This document shows positions 14,089 to 44,421 of a stretch of 64,000 nt of DNA, piece by piece. The stretch comes from a virus (lineage: Duplodnaviria; Caudoviricetes). Both the position numbers and the translations under genes were made by a program. The DNA lies in IMG/VR virus record IMGVR_UViG_3300042935_001404; one strand, given 5' to 3'. The notes beneath the pieces are model-generated. The model searched no databases. It saw only the letters and a list, made by a program, of their open reading frames with translations, and was not told the origin of the DNA. Within the stretch, counting starts at the first letter, position 1. Each line of letters starts with the position of its first letter.

Positions 14089-14367
14089 TTATTTGGCTTT
14101 GGGCTGAGTAGTTTGGTAAGCCTTCATGATGCCTTCACCAAACTTGGTGTAGTCAAATTTCATTGCTTCTTGCATGGCTTTGGTAGATTCGGAAACCAAA
14201 GTAGTTATGGTTTCGGAACCGACTTTGGCGGCTTTTTTGGTATAATTGGCCTGCTCATCAATGAACGTGTTCATTGCGTCTGCTACCTTTTCATTTTGGA
14301 CAAATGTCTTAACGAATTGTTTTTTGCTGTTTTGTACAGCGTCGATTGATGCGTCTAGTGTAAACAT
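14089..14367 (-). CDS. Phasin-like protein (PHA granule-associated)
   Basis: 92-aa amphipathic helical protein (DAVQNSKKQFVKTF...FIDEQANYTK); strong leader and RBS; assignment by resemblance. Confidence 0.55.
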   Translation of the reverse strand: MFTLDASIDAVQNSKKQFVKTFVQNEKVADAMNTFIDEQANYTKKAAKVGSETITTLVSESTKAMQEAMKFDYTKFGEGIMKAYQTTQPKAK

Positions 14368-14422
14368 AATTTTCTCCTATTAAGCGAGTTTACTATAAGG
14401 CCCGACCTATTCAGCACCTTAT
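14368..14422 (-). promoter_or_regulatory. Conserved structured leader (bulged-G hairpin + AACTYGCTTA + SD), copy 1
   Basis: ATAAGG-TGC-TGA ATAGG TCG-GG-CCTTAT ... AAACTCGCTTAATAGGAGAAAA. Confidence 0.7.
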
Positions 14423-14436
14423 GTTCTATTGTAACA

Positions 14437-14456
14437 TTATTTATGTTGCAACGCAA
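14437..14456 (-). promoter_or_regulatory. 20-bp operator plus late promoter, copy 1
   Basis: TTGCGTTGCAACATAAATAA on minus strand, identical to 43909-43928. Confidence 0.85.
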
Positions 14457-14502
14457 CATCATTTGGTATTTTTATTAGTGAATGGTCACTAAATAGTATA
14501 AT

Positions 14503-16155
14503 ATGATTATTTTTACACCAACACGAGCAGACAATAGATCAAATCCGTATCTTTTTCATGTCACATCAGAAATTGGAAAACTTCACGGATTAAAATTTTT
14601 ACCCACAGTGACTTATCCAAATCAAGCATGGACGCAGAAGTCGGCCAAACGAGCCCTGGCTGATCCCAATTCTGTGATTGAATTTAAAGACTGGGCACAC
14701 ATTGATTTTTTTAAGCACAGCAAACGAAAAAAAATAATATTTTTAGATCAATTTTTTATACACAACTACTACAAAAGAGATGTTGGCGGCGTTCATGCAT
14801 TAAATCCAGACCAATACTTTCCAAGACCACGTGATCATGCACCCAGCCCGGCAATTGATCGTTATCCCGATCGGATTGACTACAGCTGGGCCGATCTGAT
14901 AATTTGTGTACAAGAAGAAAATCTATCAGGACCTGAATGGCTTGAGTTTTTCAACAATCCTGGAGCCTATTTTCACACCGACTCGGACCGTGTGATATCC
15001 ATAGTGTCTGGCCTAAACTCTGACCTGTCATATCAAAATGTCTTTCCTCCCAACGTGTTACGTGTGCCGCTGAATTTCTGGTGTGCGTGGGTCACAGCCT
15101 GCAATACACCTGTAGAATACAATGCTGACTATGACAGACCTTACAAATTTGAAGCCTTGTTGGGCGGGTCAAAAGAAAATAGACAATTTGTTTTTCACAA
15201 GCTGAAAAAACACAATCTGCTAGAGCACGGTCTGATCAGTATCAGTGCTCAGACATTCAGATCTCCTACTGACCGCCGTTATCACGATGATTTTTATCGC
15301 AGTCCGGATCTAGATAAGTATGACAACAAAGAAATGTTGGTCCTGCGAAAGGATAGTCGTAAAGGCAATTGGATAGCACACACCACTGGCGCCGCAAGAA
15401 TTTATAACTTTCCACTGGGCAACGAAAAATCTACAACGCATGTTGGTCCGTATGCAAGTTTTTTTATACCACATCGCGTTTACCAAGAATCGTGGTTCAG
15501 CATTGTGGCCGAAAGTATTGTTACAAACTGTGACTTTTATACAGAAAAAACTGCCAAAGCCCTGTTGGGTCGTAGAGTCTTTATTACATTTGGGCCACAG
15601 CACAGCCTGAAAGTGCTCAGAGACAATGGGTTTAAAACTTTTGGTGCGTGGATAGACGAAAGCTATGACGACGAGCCCGACGACGAAATTAGATGGGGTC
15701 TGGCTTTTGAACAGGTTGTTCGATTGATTAATCACCCCAGTTTAAAATCATTACATGTTCAAGCACAAGCAGTGCTTGAACATAATTATCAGTTGGTATC
15801 TGATCAACGATCAATGCTAAAACCCATTGACGACTTTATTCAATCGTTTTTAAATGGTACTGCGCCCAGCTGTGTTGGATCGGTGCCAATGAAACAAAAC
15901 TGGACTCCTGCACAACAGCTGGCAGCAACAAAAAAACATCATCCTGTTCAAATTGAACAGGATTCTCCCGGTGCGGCATTTGCACCCTACTCGCCGGAGA
16001 TACTGCAGGGAACTATTATACGTTCAAAAAATACCACTGTGGTGCAACCTATTGTTATTCAACCAACTCGACGGTTCAATGATCGTGCTATACTACAAGC
16101 TCTGGAGCAGGCACGAGCTGAAACAGCAAAAAAACGGCAAGGATTGGGCCGTTAA
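14503..16155 (+). CDS. Putative glycosyltransferase-like protein (GT10-like C-terminal motif)
   Basis: FSIVAES...FYTEKTAKALL...GFKTF..WIDESYD. Confidence 0.5.
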   Translation: MIIFTPTRADNRSNPYLFHVTSEIGKLHGLKFLPTVTYPNQAWTQKSAKRALADPNSVIEFKDWAHIDFFKHSKRKKIIFLDQFFIHNYYKRDVGGVHALNPDQYFPRPRDHAPSPAIDRYPDRIDYSWADLIICVQEENLSGPEWLEFFNNPGAYFHTDSDRVISIVSGLNSDLSYQNVFPPNVLRVPLNFWCAWVTACNTPVEYNADYDRPYKFEALLGGSKENRQFVFHKLKKHNLLEHGLISISAQTFRSPTDRRYHDDFYRSPDLDKYDNKEMLVLRKDSRKGNWIAHTTGAARIYNFPLGNEKSTTHVGPYASFFIPHRVYQESWFSIVAESIVTNCDFYTEKTAKALLGRRVFITFGPQHSLKVLRDNGFKTFGAWIDESYDDEPDDEIRWGLAFEQVVRLINHPSLKSLHVQAQAVLEHNYQLVSDQRSMLKPIDDFIQSFLNGTAPSCVGSVPMKQNWTPAQQLAATKKHHPVQIEQDSPGAAFAPYSPEILQGTIIRSKNTTVVQPIVIQPTRRFNDRAILQALEQARAETAKKRQGLGR

Positions 16156-16179
16156 CTAAATACTTGATAGGAGAACATT

Positions 16180-16389
16180 ATGTTTACAAAAATCAAAGAA
16201 TTCTTGTTTGGCAAACCTTCTGAATTAGAAGCACCATACAAGGTTGAGGCACCAGCACCTGCGGTAGAAACTAAACCTGCTCCTGTAGCAGAAACTAAGC
16301 CTGCTCCAGTTGCCAAGCCCAAGGCAACACCCAAGCCCAAACCGGCAGTCAGGCCAAAGGCACCTGCTAAACCTCGAGCACTAAAATAA
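16180..16389 (+). CDS. Small Pro/Ala/Lys-rich protein
   Basis: AGGAG RBS, CTAAATA late motif, PAPVAETK repeats. Confidence 0.75.
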   Translation: MFTKIKEFLFGKPSELEAPYKVEAPAPAVETKPAPVAETKPAPVAKPKATPKPKPAVRPKAPAKPRALK

Positions 16390-16412
16390 AAAGTCCCGAA
16401 AGGGACTTTTTT
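16389..16412. terminator. Bidirectional terminator
   Basis: AAAAGTCCC GAAA GGGACTTTT. Confidence 0.85.
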
Positions 16413-16566
16413 ATTGATGTGTTTTTTTGGGTAACTTTGGCCTGGCCTTTGGGCCAGTTTCTTTGGCCTTTTCTTGTGCATGTTCGGCAGCTGGACTAGT
16501 TTTATAAGGTGCTGGAACAGGTGCAACTGGTGGATGTCTGTGCGGTATTCGTTTAAACCAACTCAT
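16411..16566 (-). CDS. Small Pro/Lys-rich protein (51 aa, not in ORF track)
   Basis: My translation MSWFKRIPHRHPPVAPVPAPYKTSPAAEHAQEKAKETGPKARPKLPKKTHQ; GTAAATA late motif just upstream. Confidence 0.6.
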   Translation of the reverse strand: MSWFKRIPHRHPPVAPVPAPYKTSPAAEHAQEKAKETGPKARPKLPKKTHQ

Positions 16567-16609
16567 ACTGATATTTACGACCGTACGCAAATCATAATAG
16601 ACAAATAGA

Positions 16610-16627
16610 AAGCCCCTTCCGGGGCTT
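16610..16627 (-). terminator. pstS terminator
   Basis: AAGCCCC-4 nt loop-GGGGCTT. Confidence 0.7.
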
Positions 16628-16635
16628 GTTGTTGA

Positions 16636-17637
16636 TTACTTGATCTGTGTCCAAACACGTTCACGAATCTGTTTTGTCAGTGCATCTGGCAATGGTACAT
16701 AGTCCAAATCTACAGCATCTTTCTTGCCGTTCTTAAATGCCCAATCAAAGAACTTTAGCACTTCATCACTGGTAGCTTTGTTGGCAGGGTTCTTGTACAT
16801 GATGATGAAACTGGCTGAGCTTACTGGCCAAGCCGCAGGATTCTTTTGATCCACAATACTCAGGCCCATACCCGGAACACTGAACCAATCAGCACCATCT
16901 GCGGCAGCGGCAAATGTTAAGTCATCTGGACTGACATACCGGCCTGATTTATTTTGTAGTTGTAGGAATACCATGTTGTTCTTTTTAACATAAGCATACT
17001 CTACATAACCGATTGAACCTCGGATACGGTTCACATTGGCTGCAACACCTTCGTTGCCTTTGCCACCTACCGAGTTTGCCGCTGGCCATTTAACTGCGGC
17101 ACCGCGACCCACACGCTGGAGCCACTCAGGACTAACAGTAGCAAGATAGTCTGTCCAGTTGAATGTTGTTCCTGATCCATCAGCACGGTGTACAATGGTG
17201 ATAGGCTGATCTGGTAATTGTTTGCCTGGATTCAATGCTACAAGGCGAGGATCATTCCATTTAGAGATGTTGCCCATGAATACATCTGCCATAACAGGGC
17301 CAGTAATGCGTAGTTCACCTGGCTTAATGCCATCCAAGTTAACAACAGGAACTGTGCCGCCAATGATGGCAGGGAATTGAACTTGAGCATTCTTATCTAA
17401 GTTCTCCCCGCTTACCGGAGCATCGGTTGCACCAAAGTCTACAGTCTTTGCGTTGATTTGTCTAATGCCACCTGAACTACCAATACTCTGATAGTTTAAG
17501 CTGACCCCTGTGGCTTTCTTATATCCTTCGGCCCATTTAGAATAGATAGGCATTGGAAATGTAGCACCAGCACCTGTAATGTCTGCGTGTGCTGATACGG
17601 TTACCGCGGCTAATAAAATTGCTAATAGTTTGTTCAC
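16636..17637 (-). CDS. pstS: Phosphate ABC transporter substrate-binding protein
   Basis: ITGAGATFP, YQSIGSSGG, DFGATD, HRADGSGTT, GKGNEG. Confidence 0.97.
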   Translation of the reverse strand: MNKLLAILLAAVTVSAHADITGAGATFPMPIYSKWAEGYKKATGVSLNYQSIGSSGGIRQINAKTVDFGATDAPVSGENLDKNAQVQFPAIIGGTVPVVNLDGIKPGELRITGPVMADVFMGNISKWNDPRLVALNPGKQLPDQPITIVHRADGSGTTFNWTDYLATVSPEWLQRVGRGAAVKWPAANSVGGKGNEGVAANVNRIRGSIGYVEYAYVKKNNMVFLQLQNKSGRYVSPDDLTFAAAADGADWFSVPGMGLSIVDQKNPAAWPVSSASFIIMYKNPANKATSDEVLKFFDWAFKNGKKDAVDLDYVPLPDALTKQIRERVWTQIK

Positions 17638-17679
17638 TGTGTTCTCCTTGTTGTGACAAATTTATTTAAGGAGAATCAT

Positions 17680-17697
17680 GTTACAGTTTTGTTACAA
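17680..17697 (-). promoter_or_regulatory. Pho box upstream of pstS
   Basis: TTGTAAC-AAAA-CTGTAAC, 11-bp periodic direct repeat matching the PhoB consensus. Confidence 0.75.
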
Positions 17698-17979
17698 AAT
17701 CATGCGTAGCAAACCCACTGTGTCAATTGTGGTCAACAGTATATAGTTAGCCAGCATGCCAAAAGATTTCCTAGTATAACTAGCCCAAGCATAGAGGGCG
17801 CAACCAAGGATCCAAATAGGATACAACGTAAGTAAAGGGGGGTTGGGGACGGTAACTGCCATACTAATACTACACCCAATACTAATAGCCCAAGCAAGCA
17901 ACTCAATAGCAAAGCGAATCCTGTTAGACTTAAAATCATCTCGTATCCAGTCAAATGTGTTAAGCAATATATCGTTCAT
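17692..17979 (-). CDS. Small multi-TM membrane protein
   Basis: Three hydrophobic segments; start reassigned to MNDIL. Confidence 0.65.
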   Translation of the reverse strand: MNDILLNTFDWIRDDFKSNRIRFAIELLAWAISIGCSISMAVTVPNPPLLTLYPIWILGCALYAWASYTRKSFGMLANYILLTTIDTVGLLRMIL

Positions 17980-18973
17980 AAACCTGTTCACTGGCCAAAT
18001 TTTTGCCTTTGGCTTCGCATTGGATATCAAATTGATCAGCAAAGGTCAATGCCCAATCAGTCACAGCGGAATTCCAATAAAAGTCACTGTGGGCTCGCAG
18101 TTTTTGTTTTTTAAAGCCCTGTGCCAACAATGCAGCCATGTCCGGCAACACCGTGGCGTCATGCCCCACCAGATAGTCTTCTCTACTGACTGAATAATGG
18201 AGTGCAGGCCTTACTCCACGCCAGGAATCAATCACACGCGAAACTCTATCGTCGGAGGGTTGAATGTAGTCTCCTGTACGGATCCAGTGATGGTGTATAT
18301 CAAGCACGAGGGCACAGTCTTTGGCAAGTTCAAGACTTGAGTCGATTCCCCAGGCATTTTCGTCGTTTTCGATGGTGATGCAGTTTCTTGCTTCGGGGCT
18401 AAGACGCTGGAGGGCAGAGCGAATACCCTCGGGGCCTTGTTTACCCGAGATGTGTACATTGATTTTAAAGTCTTGAAAAGTTTTGCCGTAGCCCATCCAC
18501 CTGACCATATCTGCATGATATTCAAACTCCTGTATGCTTCTATTTACGATGCCAGGATTCTCACTGGCCAACACACAGAACTGTCCAGGGTGAAAACTCA
18601 ATCTAACATCCAGTCTACGAGCAGTTTCACCAATGGGTGCAAAGATCTTGGCACAATGGTCTTGAATCTCCGGACGTTGCCACCAGTCAATCCAACTGGG
18701 CTCAGTGTAGCCTTGTAGCATTTCGCTACCTAATCGTACCATACGTCGGCCTTCGGGCAAGGTAGCCACACGTTCAATCATCCGCACAGCCGCTGAGGTG
18801 TTGTGATTCATGATATCCCACTGGCGTTGTTCAGCTTCGTCAGCGTGTTCACGAAGCCATCGCATGGTGGTTGATCTGCCGTTTAGGTCACGGTCCACTG
18901 CATTGACTTTCATGCCGCCACATTCTGAGGGGTCATTAAGCCACTTGCAACAAAAGCCAATTCGTTTATTCAT
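17960..18973 (-). CDS. uvsE: UV damage repair endonuclease (UvsE/UVDE)
   Basis: RLSFHPGQFCVLAS, NVHISG, TIENDE, VLDIHHHW, HYSVS, LRAHSD, EAKGK. Confidence 0.93.
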   Translation of the reverse strand: MNKRIGFCCKWLNDPSECGGMKVNAVDRDLNGRSTTMRWLREHADEAEQRQWDIMNHNTSAAVRMIERVATLPEGRRMVRLGSEMLQGYTEPSWIDWWQRPEIQDHCAKIFAPIGETARRLDVRLSFHPGQFCVLASENPGIVNRSIQEFEYHADMVRWMGYGKTFQDFKINVHISGKQGPEGIRSALQRLSPEARNCITIENDENAWGIDSSLELAKDCALVLDIHHHWIRTGDYIQPSDDRVSRVIDSWRGVRPALHYSVSREDYLVGHDATVLPDMAALLAQGFKKQKLRAHSDFYWNSAVTDWALTFADQFDIQCEAKGKNLASEQVYERYIA

Positions 18974-18979
18974 GCTAGT

Positions 18980-19008
18980 ATTATAGCAATAAATCTATTT
19001 GTTGTCAA
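18980..19008 (-). promoter_or_regulatory. sigma70-type promoter of uvsE
   Basis: TTGACA-17-TATAAT, 6 nt before ATG. Confidence 0.85.
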
Positions 19009-19562
19009 GGCTTTAGCAGTTCGATTACATTTTCTAATGTGTCTTTGGTAAGATTTTCAAATTCAGCCAATTCGGGATGGACGTCACCTTCGTGATCAAC
19101 CAACACCCATTGTACTGCCGGATTGCTTGAGATGGCATCTCGGATAAAACGCTGGTAATTTGTTGCTCGATGTGCTGTTAACCGATCTGCACTCTTGGGT
19201 CTTTCGGTCCAGTTGAATCCCAATAGTAGCACAACATCGCTTTGTCCAGACACTAGGTGTATGCTGATCAATTCGTCTTTGTTGTCTATTTCAAAAGTAA
19301 AACTACCTTCATACAGTCGTACCCCTCGGGGGCGATCTAGCTCGGCATAGATTGATGCTGGAACATACATATTGCACATTTCATTCATTTTGCGTTTTAA
19401 CAACTCACGTGCTTTGCCTGCATCATTGCAAACAACATTGTCAGTGCTACACCCACGCCAGGTGCGCCAGCCACCCCAGATGGCAGCAATGTCTTTGAGC
19501 ACAGTGACATCAACGTCTGGTGGTAACGCAGTGGAGTCTGCTACAACCCAATTGATTCTCAT
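19005..19562 (-). CDS. Rossmann-like protein resembling MptE/Maf (DUF115) transferase-fold proteins
   Basis: WVVA...IWG...DNVVCND...VVLLLGFN pattern; weak. Confidence 0.4.
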   Translation of the reverse strand: MRINWVVADSTALPPDVDVTVLKDIAAIWGGWRTWRGCSTDNVVCNDAGKARELLKRKMNEMCNMYVPASIYAELDRPRGVRLYEGSFTFEIDNKDELISIHLVSGQSDVVLLLGFNWTERPKSADRLTAHRATNYQRFIRDAISSNPAVQWVLVDHEGDVHPELAEFENLTKDTLENVIELLKP

Positions 19563-20854
19563 TCAACAGCCTTTAGTGTTTTCCATTTGTAGTTGCCCAG
19601 ACACACCCAGGCAAAGGCACCATTGGGCATAGGATCAGCATTGAACACAATGTCGCCCTTGGTTCCGGAATAGTTGGGAACTGTTGTTCCGTGTCCTATC
19701 ATGTACTGTGCCACACGCAATTTTTTAACAGCAGTTATGCCATCTGTTCCAATGGTCAGTTGAGGTAATTTATTAACACCAATGTTCAGTGCTTGGTCGC
19801 GACTGGTGCCAATGTAGGCTTCTTGATTTTTGTACTTGCCCGCAGATATACTAATTTCTTCGTCCCAGACATTCAGAGCAGAGTCTGGATGTTCTGTATT
19901 AATGCCCAGCCGCTTTTTAACCACCACGACAGTTTCGTTTAAACTGGTTTCGCCTTCGACTATTAGGTCTCGAAGGCGACCTACTTTTTGCAAGTTACTT
20001 TGTGTGATAGTTCGTGCCAACTGATTGCCAGCAACCAATGGGTGATCATCCACTGTGACATTGTCAAATTTAATACCGGTCTTTTTAATTTCTTCCGCGA
20101 CCTGCTCGACCAACCGATCTTTCCAGTCTTGATCCAGTTGTTTCAATGTCTTGGCACTTATGTCAGCTGCCAACACATTCCAACTTTGATTGTCTGTGTT
20201 GATAGATCCTGTGACTGCCAGGTCCTTGACTGTGACTGAATCTACAAACTTGGCAGCACGAGCAGTCAATGTGTTTTCAACCACTGTTGTTTCGTCTAAA
20301 ATTGTCAACTGGCAAGATGTAGCACGATCATCAATGCCTGTACTGGAAAAATTGTTTAACAATTCAATTTTTAATTTGGCCATATTTTCATCTACACGCT
20401 GATGAATAACAGTATTGATATCAATCGACCCAATGGTTGCTACTGTGCGGTGCACTACCATTTGATTAAGCGTTTTTTCAATCTTTTCTAACCATACCAC
20501 GTCCGTGAACAATTCTGTAACTGCGATTCGTGTGATACGATCTACTTCTTGGTCAACAGTGGTCTTAATGAGATTGTTGTTGACAAACTGTGCAACGCCA
20601 GGAACTGTGCCTGCGGCAAATAACTCAGCAACCGTGGTTTTAACAGCTTCAAGGATTTCAGGCATGGTTGTTGAGTTGGCAAATTTTGAAAGTATACGAT
20701 CTTGTGTGTACTTTAATATCTTATCTTCAAGGGGTTTGGACCACTCAGTTGATGTAAGCACTCCGTACACATGATCATTGACTGTTTCAGCAATTTGCTG
20801 TTCTATCATGCGTGTTATTACATCAGTATCAATCATGTTTTCTCCGTGTGTCAA
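19559..20854 (-). CDS. Probable virion fibre protein (coiled-coil N-terminus, fibre-like C-terminus)
   Basis: SNLQKVGRL, RLGINTEHP, GTKGDIVFN...AWVC fibre-type motifs. Confidence 0.55.
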   Translation of the reverse strand: MTHGENMIDTDVITRMIEQQIAETVNDHVYGVLTSTEWSKPLEDKILKYTQDRILSKFANSTTMPEILEAVKTTVAELFAAGTVPGVAQFVNNNLIKTTVDQEVDRITRIAVTELFTDVVWLEKIEKTLNQMVVHRTVATIGSIDINTVIHQRVDENMAKLKIELLNNFSSTGIDDRATSCQLTILDETTVVENTLTARAAKFVDSVTVKDLAVTGSINTDNQSWNVLAADISAKTLKQLDQDWKDRLVEQVAEEIKKTGIKFDNVTVDDHPLVAGNQLARTITQSNLQKVGRLRDLIVEGETSLNETVVVVKKRLGINTEHPDSALNVWDEEISISAGKYKNQEAYIGTSRDQALNIGVNKLPQLTIGTDGITAVKKLRVAQYMIGHGTTVPNYSGTKGDIVFNADPMPNGAFAWVCLGNYKWKTLKAVE

Positions 20855-23499: not shown

Positions 23500-23690
23500 A
23501 TTATGAGTATTCTTTCGGATAGATTGTGTTCTTATGTTCTTTATACAGAACAATTTTATTGATTGTGTATTAATTTATCGGCTTACAGTACCATGCCCAA
23601 AAAAAAGTAAACGAGTTTATCTATACCTACTGAATTTTATTGCTGTAGAGCAATAAATATTCGGATAATAATAACTATAAAGGTGATAGC

Positions 23691-24806
23691 ATGAGTAAGA
23701 GACTAATTATGGGCCTAGCCAGCCTTGTTTTAGTAATGTCTGCAACGGCACAAACAACCACTACGTCTGGCACAACCGGTGGAACAACCACAGGCACAAG
23801 TACACTGATCAATCAAGGTACCTACGACTCCAAGACTTTGGTTGATACCAACAGCACCAGCAATAGTACCAGCACAGTTACTTCAAATAGCAATACTAAT
23901 AGCAACAGCAACAGCACCAGCACAGCCGCGGTCAACAGTACCAGCAACAATACCAACACCAACACCAGTGTAAACACAAATAACAACATCAACTCTGGTA
24001 CCAGTACAGTTAACAACAACAACGTTAACTCAGGCACAATGACCTACAACAACAACAATGTCAACTCGGGCACAATGACCTATAACAACAACAATGTCAA
24101 CGCCAGTACAAGTACCAATGTAAACACAAACAATAATATTAACTCAGGCACAATGACCTACAACAACAACAACGTCAGCACTGCCACTAACAACAACAAC
24201 AATGTCAGCACCAGCACAGCCACCAACAACAACATCAACACTGGCGACATGACCAACCGCAATATCAACACGTCAACCAGTACCAGCAACAATGTCAACA
24301 ACAATGTGAACTCTAGCACCGCAGTCAATCAAAATGTACAAACAGGTGATATGACCAACCGCAATATCAACGAAAGCACAATCACACAACGAGTGATTCA
24401 ACCCCCTCCGACTGCTGTAGCACCTGCCATGCTGAGCGGCGGCAATGCTGACCTATGTAGTACTGGTAGTTCCGGATCGGTACAAACACAAGTGTTTGGT
24501 GTTAGTTCGGGCGGCACAGTGCGTGACATGAATTGCGAACGATTAAAGTTATCTAAAACACTATATGACATGGGTATGAAGGTTGCGGCAGTTGCTACTA
24601 TGTGTCAAGACCGTCGTGTGTTTGATGCCATGCTGGCAGCTGGTACACCTTGCCCTTATGAAGGCAAAATTGGTGAACAAGCCAAAGCAAGTTGGGAAGC
24701 TAATCCGCATAAGATTCCAAAGTTGGATGAGGTAAAATTAGATGACACTTATAAGAAAGTTGGCATTGGCGCTATCCTTGGCGTTCTTGTCCACAAATTA
24801 TTCTAA
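23691..24806 (+). CDS. Exported Asn/Thr-repeat protein with Cys-rich C-terminal domain
   Basis: Signal peptide; NNNNVNSGTMTY repeats; C...CERLKLS...MCQD...TPCP. Confidence 0.8.
   Translation: MSKRLIMGLASLVLVMSATAQTTTTSGTTGGTTTGTSTLINQGTYDSKTLVDTNSTSNSTSTVTSNSNTNSNSNSTSTAAVNSTSNNTNTNTSVNTNNNINSGTSTVNNNNVNSGTMTYNNNNVNSGTMTYNNNNVNASTSTNVNTNNNINSGTMTYNNNNVSTATNNNNNVSTSTATNNNINTGDMTNRNINTSTSTSNNVNNNVNSSTAVNQNVQTGDMTNRNINESTITQRVIQPPPTAVAPAMLSGGNADLCSTGSSGSVQTQVFGVSSGGTVRDMNCERLKLSKTLYDMGMKVAAVATMCQDRRVFDAMLAAGTPCPYEGKIGEQAKASWEANPHKIPKLDEVKLDDTYKKVGIGAILGVLVHKLF
23980..24370 (+). repeat. In-frame tandem repeats (36-nt unit, poly-AAC)
   Basis: AACTCAGGCACAATGACCTACAACAACAAC-like units; second family GACATGACCAACCGCAATATCAAC x2. 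Confidence 0.85.
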
Positions 24807-33455: not shown

Positions 33456-33484
33456 AGTATAACATAGGCCGATGGCTATGTCAA
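33456..33484 (-). promoter_or_regulatory. sigma70 promoter of groES-groEL
   Basis: TTGACA-17-TATACT; spacer is an imperfect palindrome. Confidence 0.75.
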
Positions 33485-33503
33485 CTGAACTGGGTTAAAA
33501 AGG

Positions 33504-33612: not shown

Positions 33613-33630
33613 CCAAGAAATCAGAAACCG

Positions 33631-34830: not shown

Positions 34831-34831
34831 T

Positions 34832-37249: not shown

Positions 37250-37250
37250 A

Positions 37251-37802: not shown

Positions 37803-37979
37803 TTAAACTCCCTTGTAGGCATCAAAAATAAGAGCTCCGCCGATTGTAAATCCCACTATAGCAAGTGCATAGTTACCTGTGACCAATGAACTTATTCCAG
37901 ATAGTACATTTACTCCGCCAATTGTAAGACTGATTTCTCTTCTATTGCGGCCAACCCATATAAAAAATTTATCTAACAT
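37803..37979 (-). CDS. Small membrane protein (58 aa, not in ORF track)
   Basis: My translation MLDKFFIWVGRNRREISLTIGG...FDAYKGV; fills gap, AAGGA RBS. Confidence 0.6.
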   Translation of the reverse strand: MLDKFFIWVGRNRREISLTIGGVNVLSGISSLVTGNYALAIVGFTIGGALIFDAYKGV

Positions 37980-38209
37980 TATTCTTCCTTTACAAAGTCG
38001 TATGATCGTTCAAATATAGGACCATCACAAATATATAACTCACCATCGATTCCACGCATTAGGTAATCACCAGGCTTGCCCTGTTTGTAGTTGCCTTCTA
38101 ACGTGTTCACTCGAAATTCTTCGTTGATTTGTTTGGCATGCACCACAATAGGCCGCTTGACACACGCACCCATAGATTCTACTTGCTCAAATGTGTCAAA
38201 AGTTTTCAT
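37979..38209 (-). CDS. PGDYG-like small protein
   Basis: TLEG...GKPGDYLMRGIDGELY. Confidence 0.7.
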   Translation of the reverse strand: MKTFDTFEQVESMGACVKRPIVVHAKQINEEFRVNTLEGNYKQGKPGDYLMRGIDGELYICDGPIFERSYDFVKEE

Positions 38210-38619
38210 TCTTCTTCTCCAGAATATACTACATTGCCTTCTTCGTCAGTTAGTTCCAGCGGACCTTGCAAGATATAATCTGTGTCATCATTGCGCCAAC
38301 CTAGTTCTTCCATACCGTCAAAGTAATCTTCGTTCCAGGCTGCTTCAATCTCTGCTTGTTCTTGTTCTGTCATGCCCTCAGGAAATGTCCAATCAGCCCA
38401 GCATCCATCGTCAAGGCTTGACAGTTCCCAATCGTAGTCGCTTTCGCTTAGATTGTATTCACCATCTTCTGGTTCAATTACAGGTTGGTCGTCACTTTCG
38501 CAATAGAATTCGCCCCAGCGCCAACCTTCTTCGCGAATGATTGTTTTGCCGTCTTTGCACCAGAACTGCTTTTCAACAGCACTTTTTTTGTGTAGGGTTT
38601 TGAGTGTCCAGGTTGCCAT
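38206..38619 (-). CDS. Acidic hypothetical protein
   Basis: D/E/W-rich ORF in operon. Confidence 0.7.
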   Translation of the reverse strand: MATWTLKTLHKKSAVEKQFWCKDGKTIIREEGWRWGEFYCESDDQPVIEPEDGEYNLSESDYDWELSSLDDGCWADWTFPEGMTEQEQAEIEAAWNEDYFDGMEELGWRNDDTDYILQGPLELTDEEGNVVYSGEEE

Positions 38620-38621
38620 GA

Positions 38622-38834
38622 TTAGTCATCCCGATCCATCTCTGTAGTTTCTTTGATCAGGGCCTGCAATTGATCCAATGCAGGAACCATGAGCTTGACT
38701 GTTTTGTAGTCGCCCTCACTGTCACGCCCGCCCACTTCAATCATGTATGCATTGTCATACATGTATACTTGAAACGATTCGCTGACCTTGACCAACTTGT
38801 CACTGATTTTGTTTACTGTTTTAGTTTTTGCCAT
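38622..38834 (-). CDS. Small hypothetical protein
   Basis: AAGGA RBS and promoter at 38857-38885. Confidence 0.7.
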   Translation of the reverse strand: MAKTKTVNKISDKLVKVSESFQVYMYDNAYMIEVGGRDSEGDYKTVKLMVPALDQLQALIKETTEMDRDD

Positions 38835-38856
38835 GATGTTTTCCTTAATAACATGT

Positions 38857-38885
38857 AGTATATAACAATCTGTTTAATGTGTCAA
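38857..38885 (-). promoter_or_regulatory. sigma70-type promoter
   Basis: TTGACA-17-TATACT. Confidence 0.7.
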
Positions 38886-38901
38886 TACGTTAGGTGTATC
38901 A

Positions 38902-40275
38902 TCACAATTTCTCTCCTGGTTCAAATCCACGGAATCGCACAAAGCGAGGGAATCTCAAACTGTATGATCCGTCTTGGTTTTGAGTAACTGCGTCCGCTTC
39001 AACCTCAACCACCCGATCAAGAAGCTCATTGCGAGCGGTCCAATACTCATCGCGATTGCTATCAGACAAACCGCTACCAACATTAACACGAATATTTCTG
39101 TCATTATCGACTCCTTCACATATTATAGCACCCAACCGGCCTAGATTGCGACCAGTTCCTTCTTCAAAACCCACAATATTGAGATCAACTGTGATTGTGG
39201 GTTTCCATTTCATCCACGAGTCCGAACGTTTGCACTCATATGGCGCATCCATGCTCTTGATCATAATGCCTTCATAGCCTTCTTCTACTGACGCTTCGGC
39301 AAACCTACGCATGACGTCATGACCTTCGGCTGTGTCCAAGTCCACATCCATACCTGGCATCACACGCACACAACCATTTTCTGGCAGGTGTGCTTGTGTA
39401 CGTTTCAACAAGTCAATGCGTTTGTGTTGCTGTAGATTACAGAAGCCTTCGCGGAACTCACTCAGCGGCATGATATCAAACACATGGTACACCATGTTTT
39501 CTGTTCGAGCATTGCTCTTACGCTGTGCCTGCTTCATCAAGTCCTGAAAGTTCTTACCCACAATCTCGCCATCCAACACAAACTGTCCACCAAAAGCAGA
39601 ATCACGCTGAAATGCTTTGCGATGTTCTTCAATAAAGTCTGCAATCTGTGGAAAGTTCTCAAACTCTTTGCCATTGCGGCTGTACAATGTACAAGCAGAT
39701 CCATTTACAACTGCCAACACACGTACACCATCCAGTTTGACTTCCAGTCGTTTGATACCTTTCAACTTCTTGGGGTGGTCTGTAGAATCCTGTGCCAGTT
39801 GGCAACTGAATACAGGAATCTTCCATTCAGTTCGGCCCAACACCTTGTTTAGTGTTTTTTCTGATATACCACAACGCAGGTCTTTGATCAACACACGCCG
39901 GGCCACGTTGTTCCATTCATCTGAATCAAACTGTTGGCTACATTCATCAATGGCCTCACGTGCTCGATTACCTGTGACGCTACGGGTACGCAGACTTTCC
40001 AACAACGCCCAAAACTTAGGCCACGGATTTGATTGACTGGTTAAGCCCTCAGTCTCGGGCACTTGCCGGATGCCAAACACATAAAAAGGATTGTAGGCTT
40101 GATAACAATTGAACAAGAAGGCCTGCGCATCAGAACTGCCCAACTGGGAAGCTACCAATGCCTTTTCAATAGTTTTTTCTTTATGTATTCGACTGTCCGA
40201 GCTTTCCAGGTCAAGAATCCAACCTGCTACCATTGTGCCCGCAAACCTTGGGTCTGAGAAGTTTGTTTCATTCAT
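38902..40275 (-). CDS. ATP-dependent DNA ligase
   Basis: EVKLDGVR (motif I), LDGEI, YHVFD, YEGIMIK, KWK, LRFPRF. Confidence 0.95.
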   Translation of the reverse strand: MNETNFSDPRFAGTMVAGWILDLESSDSRIHKEKTIEKALVASQLGSSDAQAFLFNCYQAYNPFYVFGIRQVPETEGLTSQSNPWPKFWALLESLRTRSVTGNRAREAIDECSQQFDSDEWNNVARRVLIKDLRCGISEKTLNKVLGRTEWKIPVFSCQLAQDSTDHPKKLKGIKRLEVKLDGVRVLAVVNGSACTLYSRNGKEFENFPQIADFIEEHRKAFQRDSAFGGQFVLDGEIVGKNFQDLMKQAQRKSNARTENMVYHVFDIMPLSEFREGFCNLQQHKRIDLLKRTQAHLPENGCVRVMPGMDVDLDTAEGHDVMRRFAEASVEEGYEGIMIKSMDAPYECKRSDSWMKWKPTITVDLNIVGFEEGTGRNLGRLGAIICEGVDNDRNIRVNVGSGLSDSNRDEYWTARNELLDRVVEVEADAVTQNQDGSYSLRFPRFVRFRGFEPGEKL

Positions 40276-40287
40276 ATATTTACTCCG

Positions 40288-40710
40288 TTACCACGAACTG
40301 TTATAGAACACTTTTAATCCACAAAACAATTCTGCACGAGCGTCGCGAACAAACTTGAGATCTTGTTCTTTATAGTGCGCATCTGCTTCATTACCAAAAA
40401 AGAAACCTGACGTACTGGGCAGTGTACCACTCATAATATCCAGTTCAAGGATTTCAAGATCCTCCCATGTAATTTCTAACTCAATGCCATTGAAGTTGGC
40501 GCTGTCACCTTTGCCGCCGTTGCGACTTTTCCAAAGCTGTTCCATCCAGCCATGCAGATTAGGATGCTTGCGCCAGTAGGCAATCTCACGCGGCTGTTCT
40601 ACTGTCTTGTTAACAAAATCTTTGGCATCATCGTCAAATTCGGCACTCTCATAAAACTCACGTTGTTGGCCTTCCTTTGCGGCCACGTATGCATACATGT
40701 CAAGTCCCAT
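40288..40710 (-). CDS. Conserved phage hypothetical protein (MGLDMY / YWRKHPNLHGW family)
   Basis: Motifs; AGGAG RBS before MGLDMY. Confidence 0.75.
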   Translation of the reverse strand: MGLDMYAYVAAKEGQQREFYESAEFDDDAKDFVNKTVEQPREIAYWRKHPNLHGWMEQLWKSRNGGKGDSANFNGIELEITWEDLEILELDIMSGTLPSTSGFFFGNEADAHYKEQDLKFVRDARAELFCGLKVFYNSSW

Positions 40711-40752
40711 TATCTTTCTCCTGGTTTGTTGACGGAAACTAGGTGCAGGCAC

Positions 40753-40932
40753 TTACCTGTTCCGAACACGATTGATCACTTCATTGGCAGCTTGGAAGCC
40801 ATTGTGCTGTTCTGTTTCTAAGAATATTTCTGTTACTTCATTTTGTAACTCGGCAAAAGCGGCACGGAACTGGGCCAGCTCTTGTTCGGTCAAATGCATC
40901 TGCATTTTGTAGTTAAAGGAGTTGTTGTTCAT
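40753..40932 (-). CDS. Small hypothetical protein (59 aa, not in ORF track)
   Basis: My translation MNNNSFNYKMQMHLTEQEL...VRNR; ATGA overlap with upstream gene. Confidence 0.55.
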   Translation of the reverse strand: MNNNSFNYKMQMHLTEQELAQFRAAFAELQNEVTEIFLETEQHNGFQAANEVINRVRNR

Positions 40933-41201
40933 GCCACTTCCAACATGTTGGCAGGTACATTGAATAGGCCGCCTGGAGTCTTGACCAGCACAAATTTGAT
41001 TTTGACTTTTTGAACATCGCCAACGTAGGTCAAGCCATTGCGGTTGCTGGTAAACTTTACCCGGTCACCAATGCCGAACGCACGGGTCTTTTGTTTGGTC
41101 AATTGCATACGAGCAAACTTCACTGCATCGATCACACTAGACAACTGATCATTGGTTAAGTTACCAAACATAATTGCAGAGTTAATTTCTTTGACGTTCA
41201 T
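40929..41201 (-). CDS. Hypothetical protein with SH3/KOW-like C-terminus
   Basis: FGIGDRVKF...GDVQKVKIKFVLV. Confidence 0.7.
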   Translation of the reverse strand: MNVKEINSAIMFGNLTNDQLSSVIDAVKFARMQLTKQKTRAFGIGDRVKFTSNRNGLTYVGDVQKVKIKFVLVKTPGGLFNVPANMLEVA

Positions 41202-41232
41202 TACAGGCTCCTGTTTTGTTTACTGTATCTAT

Positions 41233-41261
41233 ATTATACTACCAAAATCAATTTGTGTCAA
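41233..41261 (-). promoter_or_regulatory. Early sigma70-type promoter
   Basis: TTGACA-17-TATAAT. Confidence 0.85.
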
Positions 41262-41590
41262 TTAAACATACACGGAGTAGGATCACAAATTTCGCCGTGT
41301 CGTCGTAATTGTATCTGCTCATAATCTGTAAGAAAGTCGTTGTCAACTAATTCATGCCACGAGATTATTTCTCCATACCGGTTGGGATTCTCTTGTATTT
41401 TTTTATTATTCAATCGTATTCGGGGACCCAACTCGGTCATAACAAATTCCATTAATTTCCAATCTTTCCGAAAATGTTTTTTATATGTTTTCTCATCGGG
41501 AATATAAAAGTAGTTGTTATTACGTTTACCAAAAGCAAGGTGTCCGTCAAGATGAGTGACAAAAAAATATGTGTGAATATGTAGTTTCAT
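41258..41590 (-). CDS. Early hypothetical protein
   Basis: ORF with GGAG RBS and own promoter. Confidence 0.6.
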   Translation of the reverse strand: MKLHIHTYFFVTHLDGHLAFGKRNNNYFYIPDEKTYKKHFRKDWKLMEFVMTELGPRIRLNNKKIQENPNRYGEIISWHELVDNDFLTDYEQIQLRRHGEICDPTPCMFN

Positions 41591-41617
41591 TCCCGCTCCG
41601 TTGTTGTGTATGTGTGT

Positions 41618-41646
41618 ATTATAGCAGTTTGGGAATTACAGGTCAA
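41618..41646 (-). promoter_or_regulatory. Early sigma70-type promoter
   Basis: TTGACC-tgtAATTCCCAAACTGC-TATAAT. Confidence 0.85.
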
Positions 41647-42112
41647 CTGTGTCCCAGGTCTTGCTCACTTCCATTTCGTCAACTAGCGCCTTCAATAACA
41701 ATACCAACTTGCGGTAATACTTGGCATCATTTTCGTGTGTGTTACCCACGTACCAGACACCGTCACGCATGATGTAGTACCATTCTGCGCCGCAGTCGTT
41801 GGCACGATCAAAGAACGTTTCAAAGGTATGATCTGTTGCAAACTCTGCACCTGTCTCGTCACGGTCACGACCGTAAAACACAGTTACATTTTCCATGGGT
41901 GAACCAAAAGTATGGAACTCGCCATCTGGAAAATCAACATCGCGTTTCAAAGAAGACACATCGCCCAGTGACACCAGGTGGTTGGCCTTGGCACTGTCAT
42001 AATAGTGCTCTTGCAATATCACACCATTGTGTTCCAGATAACCGTCCCAGTGACAGTAGACTGATTTGCAAACGTCACCATGCATGACACCAATTCTTGA
42101 ACGTGTACCCAT
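41636..42112 (-). CDS. Conserved phage hypothetical protein (MGTRS...YCHWDGY family)
   Basis: Motifs. Confidence 0.75.
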   Translation of the reverse strand: MGTRSRIGVMHGDVCKSVYCHWDGYLEHNGVILQEHYYDSAKANHLVSLGDVSSLKRDVDFPDGEFHTFGSPMENVTVFYGRDRDETGAEFATDHTFETFFDRANDCGAEWYYIMRDGVWYVGNTHENDAKYYRKLVLLLKALVDEMEVSKTWDTVDL

Positions 42113-42113
42113 T

Positions 42114-42314
42114 TTATGCTACCTCTTTCTGTTGTTGCAACCAAAAATATTCATTAATCAAATCTGAGGGGAAATCCTCATGGTACCAAAAATAGTACCG
42201 AGCAGATTTCAATCCCAGTGCTTTTTTTACAACATCAAATCCCACGTCAAGAACATCATTCTCTGCTGTGATATTGGGATTGATTGCAAATACATCTTCG
42301 GCAAAACTTGACAT
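42114..42314 (-). CDS. Small early hypothetical protein
   Basis: ORF with RBS and own promoter. Confidence 0.65.
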   Translation of the reverse strand: MSSFAEDVFAINPNITAENDVLDVGFDVVKKALGLKSARYYFWYHEDFPSDLINEYFWLQQQKEVA

Positions 42315-42344
42315 CTTTTTTCCTTTTTTTCTTACTATGTTTAT

Positions 42345-42373
42345 ATTATAGCAGTTTGGGAATTATCAGTCAA
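42345..42373 (-). promoter_or_regulatory. Early sigma70-type promoter
   Basis: TTGACT-gatAATTCCCAAACTGC-TATAAT. Confidence 0.85.
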
Positions 42374-42727
42374 TCAATCTAATCTGCTTCCAGCGTAGAC
42401 CTGTGTTAGGCCCAACTTGGTCTTCAGTACCTCAGCGTAGGCCTCGGCACCTGCTTCTAAAATGCTGATTGATTGGGTTGGGAAACCGCTGGGGTTCCAC
42501 AGTTGAAGACTGCCAGTGTAGTCCTTACGGAAGCCCGCGGCCTGTAGCCACTTGCCCAACTTTGAGTTAGACCGTACGCCAAACACGTTGACCCAAGCAA
42601 AGCCACAAGCATCACGATCGCCATGCTTGGCGTGGAATGCTTTGGCCGCTGAGCGGGCTTGGATACCTGCTTCGTTGGTTGCGTCTTGTACCAACTGCTC
42701 TGTGATCTGTGTTGCTATTGCTGTCAT
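42374..42727 (-). CDS. Early hypothetical protein (ACGFAWV family)
   Basis: Start reassigned to MTAIAT, downstream of promoter 42758-42786. Confidence 0.7.
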   Translation of the reverse strand: MTAIATQITEQLVQDATNEAGIQARSAAKAFHAKHGDRDACGFAWVNVFGVRSNSKLGKWLQAAGFRKDYTGSLQLWNPSGFPTQSISILEAGAEAYAEVLKTKLGLTQVYAGSRLD

Positions 42728-42757
42728 TTCGGAATCCTTTTTAGTTTCTATACAAGT

Positions 42758-42786
42758 ATTATAACAGTTTGGGAATTTCGGGTCAA
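42758..42786 (-). promoter_or_regulatory. Early sigma70-type promoter
   Basis: TTGACC-cgaAATTCCCAAACTGT-TATAAT. Confidence 0.85.
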
Positions 42787-43073
42787 CCGTTTTGTTTGTC
42801 CATGATGTACTCAAACAAGACAAATTTAGCACGATTCAGCAGTTGACGCTGATCTTCAATGGTGTTAAAGTCCGGTTGCTCGTAGGCCATCAGTTCTTGT
42901 GCATCACTCATCATGCTGGCCACAACCATTGCAGGGCCAGAGAATTTAAAAGTGCTGGACGATTCCACTGCTTCACGCATTTCGGACTCGGTGCAACCAT
43001 ACATGCCAACTTGGCGTTTTTCTTGCTCGTTTAACGTAATCATTTCGCCTAGTATATCGTATCTTAAACCCAT
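42783..43073 (-). CDS. Early hypothetical protein
   Basis: AGGAG RBS, own promoter. Confidence 0.7.
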   Translation of the reverse strand: MGLRYDILGEMITLNEQEKRQVGMYGCTESEMREAVESSSTFKFSGPAMVVASMMSDAQELMAYEQPDFNTIEDQRQLLNRAKFVLFEYIMDKQNG

Positions 43074-43104
43074 TTTTGAACTCCTTTTTGTTAAACTATG
43101 CTAT

Positions 43105-43133
43105 ATTATAGCAAATTGGGAATATTCGGTCAA
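43105..43133 (-). promoter_or_regulatory. Early sigma70-type promoter
   Basis: TTGACC-17-TATAAT. Confidence 0.85.
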
Positions 43134-43363
43134 CCAAAGGCTTTTACCAGCCCGATTAGCCCAATTGCTACACTTACAAGATTCACAAACATCTGTGGTT
43201 TATTTGCAACACGCACAGTCCAAATCAGGAACAAAATAGTCCCAATAAAAAATGTAAGAATGTTGTAAGGATGAGCTGTTGGCCCCACTGCATTGAGGCT
43301 ATGCCCTGCTACTATAAAAATAGCCCCGGTCCACTGCAAAATTTCATTTGTATCTAATTTCAT
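43130..43363 (-). CDS. Small 3-TM membrane protein
   Basis: Three hydrophobic segments. Confidence 0.7.
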   Translation of the reverse strand: MKLDTNEILQWTGAIFIVAGHSLNAVGPTAHPYNILTFFIGTILFLIWTVRVANKPQMFVNLVSVAIGLIGLVKAFG

Positions 43364-43369
43364 ACCTTA

Positions 43370-43398
43370 ATTATAGCAGTTTGGGAATTATTGGTCAA
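43370..43398 (-). promoter_or_regulatory. Early sigma70-type promoter
   Basis: TTGACC-aatAATTCCCAAACTGC-TATAAT. Confidence 0.85.
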
Positions 43399-43404
43399 CC
43401 GAAA

Positions 43405-43806
43405 TCACAACTCAATTGCCCTGCGAAACACAATTTCTTGCCGGGCAAAGGCATCTAATTCCCAGGGCTGTTGCAAATATGCCACATTACGACCGTAGTA
43501 TTTGCCGTTCCATTTTTTGCCTTTGGGCATGATTTTTAGGATGCCTCGTGCCATTTGTCGCACATGCACCAACTCGTGTGCCAGGGTCACGCCCAGTGCA
43601 TACAAATTTCTAGTGGGTTTTAATACCACCAAGTAAGTGTCAAGTCCTGTCAACGGCACAGTGGTGCCCATTTCCTCTAAATCTGAGTCCACTTTGATCA
43701 TAAGCAATTTTTGATTTTTAGCAAGCCCAAGTTGGGTCAACATGCTAGGAACCAGTGCTTCAATGTACCGTTTGGTTTTGGGTCCGGCTTCAACGTGCAA
43801 TTCCAT
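43405..43806 (-). CDS. Zincin metallopeptidase-like protein
   Basis: TLAHELVHVRQ (HExxH) and downstream PWELDA. Confidence 0.8.
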   Translation of the reverse strand: MELHVEAGPKTKRYIEALVPSMLTQLGLAKNQKLLMIKVDSDLEEMGTTVPLTGLDTYLVVLKPTRNLYALGVTLAHELVHVRQMARGILKIMPKGKKWNGKYYGRNVAYLQQPWELDAFARQEIVFRRAIEL

Positions 43807-43833
43807 ATGTGCCTTTTTTTACTATATGCCCAA

Positions 43834-43862
43834 ATTATAACAAAATACCAATTTTGTGTCAA
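43834..43862 (-). promoter_or_regulatory. Early sigma70-type promoter
   Basis: TTGACA-17-TATAAT. Confidence 0.85.
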
Positions 43863-43908
43863 CCGATGCATGTTTTGTTTATTTTATTAGTAGAAACCAT
43901 TGGGTGTA

Positions 43909-43928
43909 TTGCGTTGCAACATAAATAA
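43909..43928 (+). promoter_or_regulatory. 20-bp operator plus late promoter, copy 2
   Basis: TTGCGTTGCAACATAAATAA, identical to reverse complement of 14437-14456. Confidence 0.85.
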
Positions 43929-43971
43929 CTCAGTAGAAACCACGAGTTTCTCGTTACTAAAGGAAAAAGCA

Positions 43972-44136
43972 ATGACAGCAACAATAGCAAAACTAATTGA
44001 GCGTCTAGCCGAAATGTTCCCACGACAGAACTATCAAAGCAAATTAGACGCTTATCTCGCAAGTAAAAACGTACAAGACATCTGTGATGTAGAACACTGG
44101 ACCAAACAGTTTGACCGTAAAGGAAGTTATCTATGA
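43972..44136 (+). CDS. Small protein resembling DUF3563
   Basis: KLDAYLASKNVQDICDVEHWTKQFDR; AAGGA RBS. Confidence 0.6.
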   Translation: MTATIAKLIERLAEMFPRQNYQSKLDAYLASKNVQDICDVEHWTKQFDRKGSYL

Positions 44137-44237
44137 AAAACTTTATCAACACAGTGTATAACGGTCTAATTGCCTGGGCAGAAATGATTCACGAATATCG
44201 TCAAAGTTCTGCTAACAAATTTCATTATTGGAAGTAA
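44133..44237 (+). CDS. Micro-protein, 34 aa (not in ORF track)
   Basis: MKNFINTVYNGLIAWAEMIHEYRQSSANKFHYWK; ATGA coupling. Confidence 0.55.
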   Translation: MKNFINTVYNGLIAWAEMIHEYRQSSANKFHYWK

Positions 44238-44239
44238 TC

Positions 44240-44323
44240 ATGGACATAGGATTAGTCGCGGTTCAAATCATAATATTCGGGGCAATAATTCTCGTATATC
44301 TAGTGCAGGAGTTTAATAAATGA
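44240..44323 (+). CDS. Single-TM micro-protein, 27 aa (not in ORF track)
   Basis: MDIGLVAVQIIIFGAIILVYLVQEFNK. Confidence 0.5.
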   Translation: MDIGLVAVQIIIFGAIILVYLVQEFNK

Positions 44324-44421
44324 ACTATCTAAACACATTATTGATGTTACTACGTTGGTCAAAAGACGGATGGGAAGTTCATCCTATTGACTTATCTACC
44401 GACTTTAGCGGATGGGTTTAA
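44320..44421 (+). CDS. Micro-protein, 33 aa (not in ORF track)
   Basis: MNYLNTLLMLLRWSKDGWEVHPIDLSTDFSGWV; AGGAG RBS, ATGA coupling. Confidence 0.55.
   Translation: MNYLNTLLMLLRWSKDGWEVHPIDLSTDFSGWV

Follow-up and report, generated by a model that had tools for sequence, protein, structure and literature searches.

A candidate PhaR-type operator shared by two transcription units of an uncultured freshwater phage

PhaR is a repressor of phasin genes that binds granules of polyhydroxybutyrate (PHB) and is titrated by the surface of this storage polymer. The viral record IMGVR_UViG_3300042935_001404 of IMG/VR, of which a stretch of 64,000 nucleotides (nt) was analysed and is referred to as the window, carries an identical 20-mer, TTGCGTTGCAACATAAATAA, in front of two different genes. 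One of these genes encodes a helical protein of 92 amino acids, and the other encodes a protein of 54 amino acids and is followed by three micro-protein genes. Comparison of the 20-mer with published sites and with orthologous loci suggests that, on balance, it probably holds an operator for a host-supplied regulator of the PhaR family, placed on two linked phage transcription units. A broader reading is more tentative, namely that a widespread family of freshwater T4-like jumbo phages reads the PHB status of the cell through host PhaR and switches on two late transcription units in PHB-loaded cells only, with a minimal phasin-like protein, granule sensing and probable manipulation of the granules.

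Exact copies of the 20-mer are located at 14437-14456 (minus strand) and 43909-43928 (plus strand), with 29 kb between them, which confirms what had been claimed in an earlier reading of the window made from its letters alone (the sequence-only reading). Copy 1 lies 70 nt upstream of the ATG of open reading frame (ORF) 14089-14367 on the minus strand (the P locus), and copy 2 lies 43 nt upstream of the ATG of ORF 43972-44136 on the plus strand (the D locus). A search of the whole window at up to three mismatches returned these two matches and no more. The count expected from shuffled sequences is 0.02, and none of 100 shuffles contained two matches. The flanks of the copies are unrelated, as identity ends at the 20 nt. 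The repeat is real, and chance accounts for it very poorly. At its core is a palindrome of 15 bp, TGTTGC-N3-GCAACA, which reaches 2 nt upstream past the 20-mer and reads TGTTGCGTTGCAACA at 14444-14458 and TATTGCGTTGCAACA at 43907-43921. A third copy of TTGCGTTGCAA, at 63533 within ORF 63457-63705, is taken as chance. The two sites and the genes downstream of them are as follows.

14444-14458, no strand assigned: site 1, candidate operator of PhaR type, TGTTGC-GTT-GCAACA, a perfect 15-bp palindrome upstream of the 92-residue gene and conserved in orthologs
43907-43921, no strand assigned: site 2, palindrome TATTGC-GTT-GCAACA with one arm mismatch, upstream of the 54-residue gene and conserved in orthologs
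14089-14367, minus strand: 92-residue three-helix protein P0001 (from the sequence and an AlphaFold2 model), whose phasin likeness is unproven
43972-44136, plus strand: 54-residue protein with the invariant core ERLAEMFP..YQ..L, weakly DUF3563-like (from the family alignment and Pfam)
44133-44237, plus strand: micro-ORF m1, 34 residues, syntenic, with 32-91% amino acid identity in relatives
44240-44323, plus strand: micro-ORF m2, 27 residues, hydrophobic with a single transmembrane-like segment, conserved in relatives
44320-44421, plus strand: micro-ORF m3, 33 residues, conserved in relatives

Binding sites of PhaR and its homologs have been described in several bacteria. PhbF of Herbaspirillum seropedicae represses phaP1 and phbF, and its DNase-footprinted site is TG[N]TGC[N]3GCAA (PMC3206438). 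The PhaR site of Ralstonia eutropha is YTKNTGCRNYGCANMAR, in which positions 1-4 and 7 from the centre are almost perfectly conserved, and such sites are located at the -35 and -10 elements of phaP1 (PMC12849132). AniA/PhaR of Sinorhizobium meliloti recognizes NYGCRNYGCRN with AT-rich arms, and mutation of the palindrome abolished the shifts in electrophoretic mobility shift assays (PMC12542648). The alphaproteobacterial PhaR site is given as CTGC-N3-GCAG (cited in PMC3206438). Site 1 of the window (TG-T-TGC-GTT-GCAA) is an exact match to the Herbaspirillum consensus. Both sites have the spacer GTT, satisfy the R-N-Y rule and the A/T at +/-7, and meet all conserved R. eutropha positions as well as the S. 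meliloti core YGC-RNY-GCR. The box TGC-N3-GCA thus fits the PhaR sites of all three studies, as the sequence-only reading had supposed, but its assignment to an alphaproteobacterial type stands only for the shared core, since the closest published consensus is betaproteobacterial (Burkholderiales).

The agreement extends to positions that played no part in selecting the boxes. A set of 34 distinct boxes upstream of orthologs was chosen by TGC-N3-GCA alone, leaving the R-N-Y spacer and the base at +7 out of the choice. The R-N-Y spacer is nevertheless present in 29 of the 34 (binomial p 2e-13 against 0.25, a value that overstates independence as the sequences are related). The half-site across the set is Y(63/68)-G-C-A-A(50)-M(54)-A(65/68)-W, with A at +7 in 65 of 68 half-sites. 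No other argument for a site of PhaR type is as strong as this match at positions left out of the selection.

The phage sites resemble the PhaR/PhbF-phaP circuit of Burkholderiales in the palindromic TGC-RNY-GCA with T/A at +/-7 and TG-N-TGC-N3-GCAA, and in an operator that overlaps the -35/-10 promoter region of a gene for a small helical protein. They differ from it in that they lie in a virus encoding no PhaR and are joined to a T4-type ATAAATA core, in that an operator also precedes the 54-residue gene and three micro-protein genes, and in that the target protein has 92 residues and falls below the Phasin_2 threshold. AniA/PhaR of S. meliloti and PhaR of Rhodobacter sphaeroides and Bradyrhizobium share with the phage the core YGC-RNY-GCR flanking or overlapping promoter elements. 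The arms of the alphaproteobacterial sites (CTGC...GCAG; AT-rich and extended) are unlike the phage TGTTGC...GCAACA, which sits closer to the Burkholderiales consensus.

Among distinct upstream regions of orthologs, the canonical box TGC-RNY-GCA is found in 16 of 29 at the P locus and in 18 of 53 at the D locus, compared with 0.9% of random 162-nt windows from the same loci. Its arms are kept while the three central bases of the spacer vary freely (GTT, ACT, GCC, AGT, GGT, AAT, ATT, GAC, AAC and others), and some lineages have the one-mismatch variant TGC-RNY-GCC. Conservation of the box before orthologs in related phages had been proposed as a check, and it holds for many orthologs of both genes, but not for others, which have a four-base spacer, a degenerate box or no box. 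As some lineages have a variant or no box, the box is frequent but dispensable.

Both sites are placed at promoter-like elements, which are listed here together with the conserved elements beside them.

14438-14444, minus strand: ATAAATA, T4-type late-promoter core, abutting site 1
43921-43927, plus strand: ATAAATA late-promoter core, abutting site 2
14428-14436, minus strand: TGT-TACAAT, extended -10-like element 17 nt downstream of TTGCGT, a positionally conserved -10 in ortholog alignments
14475-14492, no strand assigned: palindrome TTAGTGA-N4-TCACTAA, about 20 nt upstream of site 1, conserved in orthologs
43889-43899 and 43932-43942, plus strand: exact direct repeats of AGTAGAAACCA on either side of site 2, the second of which may form the start of the mRNA leader

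T4-type late promoters have a (T)ATAAATA core about 10 nt before the start site and no -35 element. The window contains 11 copies of ATAAATA, eight of them intergenic against an intergenic fraction of 8.7% (p 4e-7), and two further copies directly before start codons, giving about 10 promoter positions. From this placement, ATAAATA appears to behave as a T4-type late-promoter core (TATAAATA, gp55-dependent). TTGCGTTGCAAC is present at only two of the approximately 10 positions, and the sequences upstream of the others are unrelated. Five near-complete relatives (320-353 kb) were searched with TGNTGCNNNGCAA and TNNTGCRNYGCANNA, and promoter-placed copies were found only at the P and D orthologs, every other match being inside an ORF. 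The sequence-only reading had allowed that the 20-mer might precede many unrelated late genes and be an extended late promoter; scans of the window and the five relatives find promoter-placed copies at two loci only. The box is accordingly not a generic part of the late promoter but a discrete operator-like palindrome added to two promoters.

The box abuts or overlaps core promoter elements, with ATAAATA at both sites and TTGCGT located 17 nt before TACAAT at site 1. The description of the box as abutting an ATAAATA late promoter is correct for both window sites, but among P orthologs the ATAAATA that abuts site 1 is clade-specific, and the fixed element is instead TAnAAT(A) 17 nt after TTGCNN. 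Across orthologs the aligned -10 of the P locus is TACAAT, TATAAT or TAAATA, located 17-18 nt past the TTGCNN of the box. The window version, TTGCGT-N17-(TGT)TACAAT, was missed by the consensus promoter scan, with its -35 matching at 3 of 6 positions. At the D locus, TAAATA lies 4-5 nt ahead of a conserved CAGTAGAAAC in most orthologs, and its distance from the box ranges from 0 to about 12 nt (abutting, or with the box 10-12 nt further upstream). Some D orthologs (L067, L085, L086) keep the promoter and have no box. A dimer bound at either site would be expected to overlap the region contacted by RNA polymerase, as in phaP1 repression. A sigma54 promoter was also considered and was rejected, as site 2 lacks the required -24/-12 spacing and GG is missing from site 1. 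None of the RNA sequencing runs searched for the locus contained it.

The palindrome TTAGTGA-N4-TCACTAA is a candidate second operator. A similar palindrome, TTAGTAC-N4-GTACTAA, was observed upstream of some D orthologs (L061, L068, L069, L085, L086). The AGTAGAAACCA repeats are 43 nt apart, and complete relatives have the same layout with one other copy per genome of about 350 kb; they are possibly a site for a second factor or a leader start.

The 92-residue protein belongs to a large family, with 683 close homologs in metagenomes, 402 clusters at 50% identity and 35 IMG/VR loci. Phasin_2 is the only recurrent Pfam match of this family, found in 3 of 19 close and 10 of 40 distant members at sub-threshold scores (best E 1.2e-4), and the alignments of three singly tested members share one register at model positions 34-99. 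The AlphaFold2 model of P0001 has three helices (pLDDT 83). Clusters of Phasin_2, PHB_acc and PHA_synth_III_E are among the ESM feature neighbours, each with a score below 0.9 and useful as a lead only, and one cluster labelled 'Phasin domain' in the fold search reached a TM score of 0.71 at an E value of 3.3. A sequence-profile search of the PDB returned designed helical bundles only, and the hydrophobic moment of P0001 (0.41-0.47) does not differ significantly from shuffles (p 0.12). The label of phasin-like gene given by the sequence-only reading is not established: the recurrent sub-threshold Phasin_2 matches are suggestive only, scores stay below the curated thresholds and hhalign comparisons are negative. 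Homology of the 92-residue protein to phasins is possible but doubtful.

The gene is preceded by a structured leader and followed by a hairpin.

14362-14423, minus strand: structured 5' leader with a long hairpin and a U(C/U)GCU/AGGAG helix sequestering the Shine-Dalgarno sequence, ROSE-like (from Rfam, folding and covariation)
14013-14053, minus strand: hairpin CCAGTTC...GAACTGG located past the stop codon, with a T-run behind it (read from the sequence; it exceeds the loop limit of the terminator scan)

The hairpin is a probable terminator, which would make the 92-residue gene monocistronic. The leader resembles ROSE thermometers in that it ends in a U(C/U)GCU stretch pairing with AGGAG, and it matches the Rfam model ROSE_3 (RF02523) over its full length with 22.8 bits (E 0.021). 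The leader differs from ROSE elements in that this score is below the gathering score of 43 and in that the downstream gene does not encode a small heat-shock protein. An explicit structure applied to 16 orthologs is 85% paired, compared with about 50% in slid controls, and its Shine-Dalgarno helix is 95% paired, although the derivation of the structure from one of the tested sequences biases these figures somewhat in its favour. Covariation amounts to 20 double-change cells versus 7.4 in shuffles, and none of 500 shuffles reached 20. RNAalifold on the default leader alignment predicted only 4 pairs. An inverted repeat of the start region of the gene (14359-14384), comprising its ribosome-binding site and codons 1-3 (MFT), is present at 16163-16188 (plus strand). 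The gene that bears this inverted repeat, 16180-16389, encodes a 69-residue Pro/Ala/Lys-rich protein and is followed by a clear terminator hairpin.

The 54-residue protein has 283 relatives in IMG/VR, and the three micro-ORFs that overlap or abut one another after its gene all have syntenic counterparts with conserved protein sequences in relatives. Its label as DUF3563-like is weak: the alignment with DUF3563 (PF12086) is near full-length, but at 14.9 bits (E 0.028) it is below the curated threshold of 26.9 bits. Four of 24 family members match this domain, also sub-threshold (best E 0.0088). The leader of the 54-residue gene is not significantly structured when analysed alone (z -0.01) and has no Rfam match. 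The 92-residue and 54-residue families are adjacent on the same strand in 36 related loci, either with the 92-residue gene directly followed by the 54-residue gene (L028, L029, L032, L036) or with the 54-residue gene followed about 200 nt on by a 92-residue-like gene (L073-L125 group). From this adjacency the two genes appear to form one old module; in the lineage of the window they are 29 kb apart, with the operator-like box kept at both. A profile search of species-genome contigs with the 54-residue alignment gave one match, L145 (NZ_JBBAKG010000036.1, 62.5 kb), in a metagenome-assembled genome of 'Haliscomenobacter sp.'. It is probably phage DNA that was binned wrongly with a Bacteroidota genome, given the strong Shine-Dalgarno sites and TTGACA-N17-TATAAT promoters of the phage.

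The window appears to come from an uncultured freshwater T4-like jumbo phage, judging from the size of orthologous contigs and the T4-like relatives of one of its proteins. Orthologous contigs in IMG/VR reach 320-353 kb, and two of them have terminal repeats. The only cultured-phage relatives of one large window protein are T4-like cyanophages, pelagiphages and similar myoviruses. Searches of cultured phages by megablast with the P and D loci, and by tblastn with P0001 and two members of the 54-residue family, gave zero matches, and the window has no close cultured relative. Near-identical DNA is present in at least 23 lake metagenome studies. The G+C content is about 43%, and the gene content includes PstS, GroEL, four radical-SAM proteins, a UvdE-like endonuclease, ribonucleotide reductase, DNA ligase and tail-fibre-like proteins. 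The five near-complete relatives have no match to PHB_acc_N, PHB_acc, PhaC_N or PHB_depo_C, and hence no PhaR, PhaC or PhaZ, which leaves the host as the source of any PhaR. The GroEL of the window is marginally closest to betaproteobacterial GroELs (70-71.5%), and a PHB-making freshwater betaproteobacterium is a weak guess for the host. The secondary replicons of Burkholderia, Paraburkholderia, Ralstonia and Variovorax have no PhaR, and three atypical phasin genes on them have no box.

If the box is an operator for host PhaR, it would be embedded in the promoter cores of a monocistronic 92-residue helical gene and of the 54-residue gene with three micro-protein genes. When no free PHB surface is available, host PhaR dimers would occupy the box and block RNA polymerase, lying at approximately -13 to -27 relative to the start set by ATAAATA or, for the TTGCGT-N17-TACAAT promoter, over its -35 element. 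PHB granules would titrate PhaR and release both units, and expression would then require both the phage late programme and PHB-loaded cells. The 92-residue protein might act at the granule surface with the 54-residue protein and the micro-proteins as partners, and the ROSE-like leader could add translational control.

Several results weigh against this proposal. A sizeable minority of orthologous promoters have TGC-N4-GCA (e.g. TGTGCGATCGCACA), a degenerate box or none, and the four-base spacer is outside the published PhaR spacing. P0001 itself has no Phasin_2 match (PF09361/TIGR01841) and is below every curated threshold; the best member of its family scores 20.7 bits where the Phasin_2 threshold is 24.9, and none reaches it. 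Comparison by hhalign of A5 and A3 with a 19-member alignment of Paraburkholderia phasins (one narrow subfamily) gave probabilities of 0.6-2.6%, and comparison with single phasins was also negative. None of the homologs of P0160, the most phasin-like member, has a Pfam phasin domain. Shape searches of the AlphaFold2 model with Foldseek (clusters of the AlphaFold database and PDB) and in the ESM Atlas returned generic helical matches only. Three DUF3563 genes of Burkholderia and Paraburkholderia were examined, and none has the box. The locus-specific conserved elements (TTAGTGA-N4-TCACTAA and the AGTAGAAACCA repeats) could belong to a phage regulator.

These points bear most directly on the alternative that the palindrome is the operator of a phage-encoded dimeric regulator for a module unrelated to PHB and that its likeness to PhaR sites is coincidental. 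Repressors of their own with short palindromic operators are common in phages, further conserved locus-specific elements adjoin the box, the N4 variants of distant relatives misfit PhaR spacing and the phasin identity of the target gene is unproven. This alternative is unlikely, as the PhaR rules hold at positions that were not selected (R-N-Y in 29/34; A at +7 in 65/68), no Pfam family other than Phasin_2 gives a recurrent signal for the target gene, and no candidate regulator was seen beside the P or D locus, where the neighbours are unrelated. The box might instead be a promoter component and not a repressor site, serving as a -35-like or upstream element that a certain RNA polymerase holoenzyme or phage transcription factor recognizes in a special middle or late promoter class. 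The geometry of TTGCNN 17-18 nt before TAnAAT(A) in many orthologs of the 92-residue gene is that of a -35 element, and at both window sites the box abuts ATAAATA. However, only two such promoters exist per genome of about 350 kb, the half-sites are symmetrically conserved around a variable centre as is typical for a dimeric DNA-binding protein, the distance from box to TAAATA varies from 0 to about 12 nt among 54-residue orthologs, L067, L085 and L086 keep the promoter without the box, and the sigma54 version fails on spacing at site 2 and the missing GG at site 1. A role as a promoter element is thus quite improbable. Least probable by far is a chance or structural coincidence such as a DNA or RNA hairpin with no regulatory role. 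The site palindrome can form a 7-bp hairpin, and its plus strand was scored as terminator-like in a scan, but the palindrome lies upstream of genes and not after them, the 20 nt are exactly identical with 0 of 100 shuffles giving two matches, and the box is conserved before orthologs of two different genes in highly diverged phages. Coincidence is effectively refuted by these conservation data.

The PhaR-phasin circuit is known, and phages are known to exploit host regulators; what would be new is a virus that joins the two and couples them to a late-promoter core and a micro-protein operon. A full-text literature search found no paper on phage-borne phasins or PhaR operators, which is weak evidence as 'phasin' also matches 'phasing'. 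Zeng and Chisholm reportedly showed in 2012 that host PhoB controls cyanophage pstS and phoA. The proposed case would be like the cyanophage PhoB-pstS case in that a nutrient-sensing transcription factor of the host gates auxiliary genes of a T4-like phage. It would differ in that the signal is carbon-storage granules rather than phosphate, and in that PhaR is a polymer-titrated repressor rather than a phosphorylated activator. Sensors of this kind, in which a storage-polymer surface titrates a repressor, are rare. If the broader reading is true, these phages would be the first viruses to use the PhaR switch and to encode a granule-coat protein, and the cyanophage paradigm would be extended from phosphate to carbon storage. 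The outcome of infection would depend on host carbon reserves, linking viral lysis to PHB cycling in lakes. Two abundant phage protein families (402 clusters; 283 IMG/VR relatives) would gain a testable role, and compact PHB-responsive promoter cassettes would be on offer.

The window also contains other promoter types and genes. A repeated promoter of sigma70 consensus is its early-gene promoter type. At least nine near-identical members of this family, GTTGAC-N17-TATAAT with a conserved spacer AATTCCC..TGC, are located at 4766-5516 and 41618-43862 (minus strand), where they precede small minus-strand genes. One promoter of this repeated family lies within the intergenic region of the D locus.

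43834-43862, minus strand: divergent sigma70 early promoter TTGACA-N17-TATAAT, a 12/12 match, predicted to drive gene 43405-43806

The pstS gene (16636-17637, minus strand) has Pho-box-like direct repeats, TTGTAAC-AAAA-CTGTAAC, upstream of it at 17660-17700, followed by TTAAATAA. This suggests that the phage pstS may be under host PhoB control, like cyanophage pstS. A 371-residue protein encoded at 23691-24806 (plus strand), preceded by ATAAATA at 23653, is rich in Asn, Thr and Ser and is built on a long, imperfect tandem repeat of 30-48 nt.

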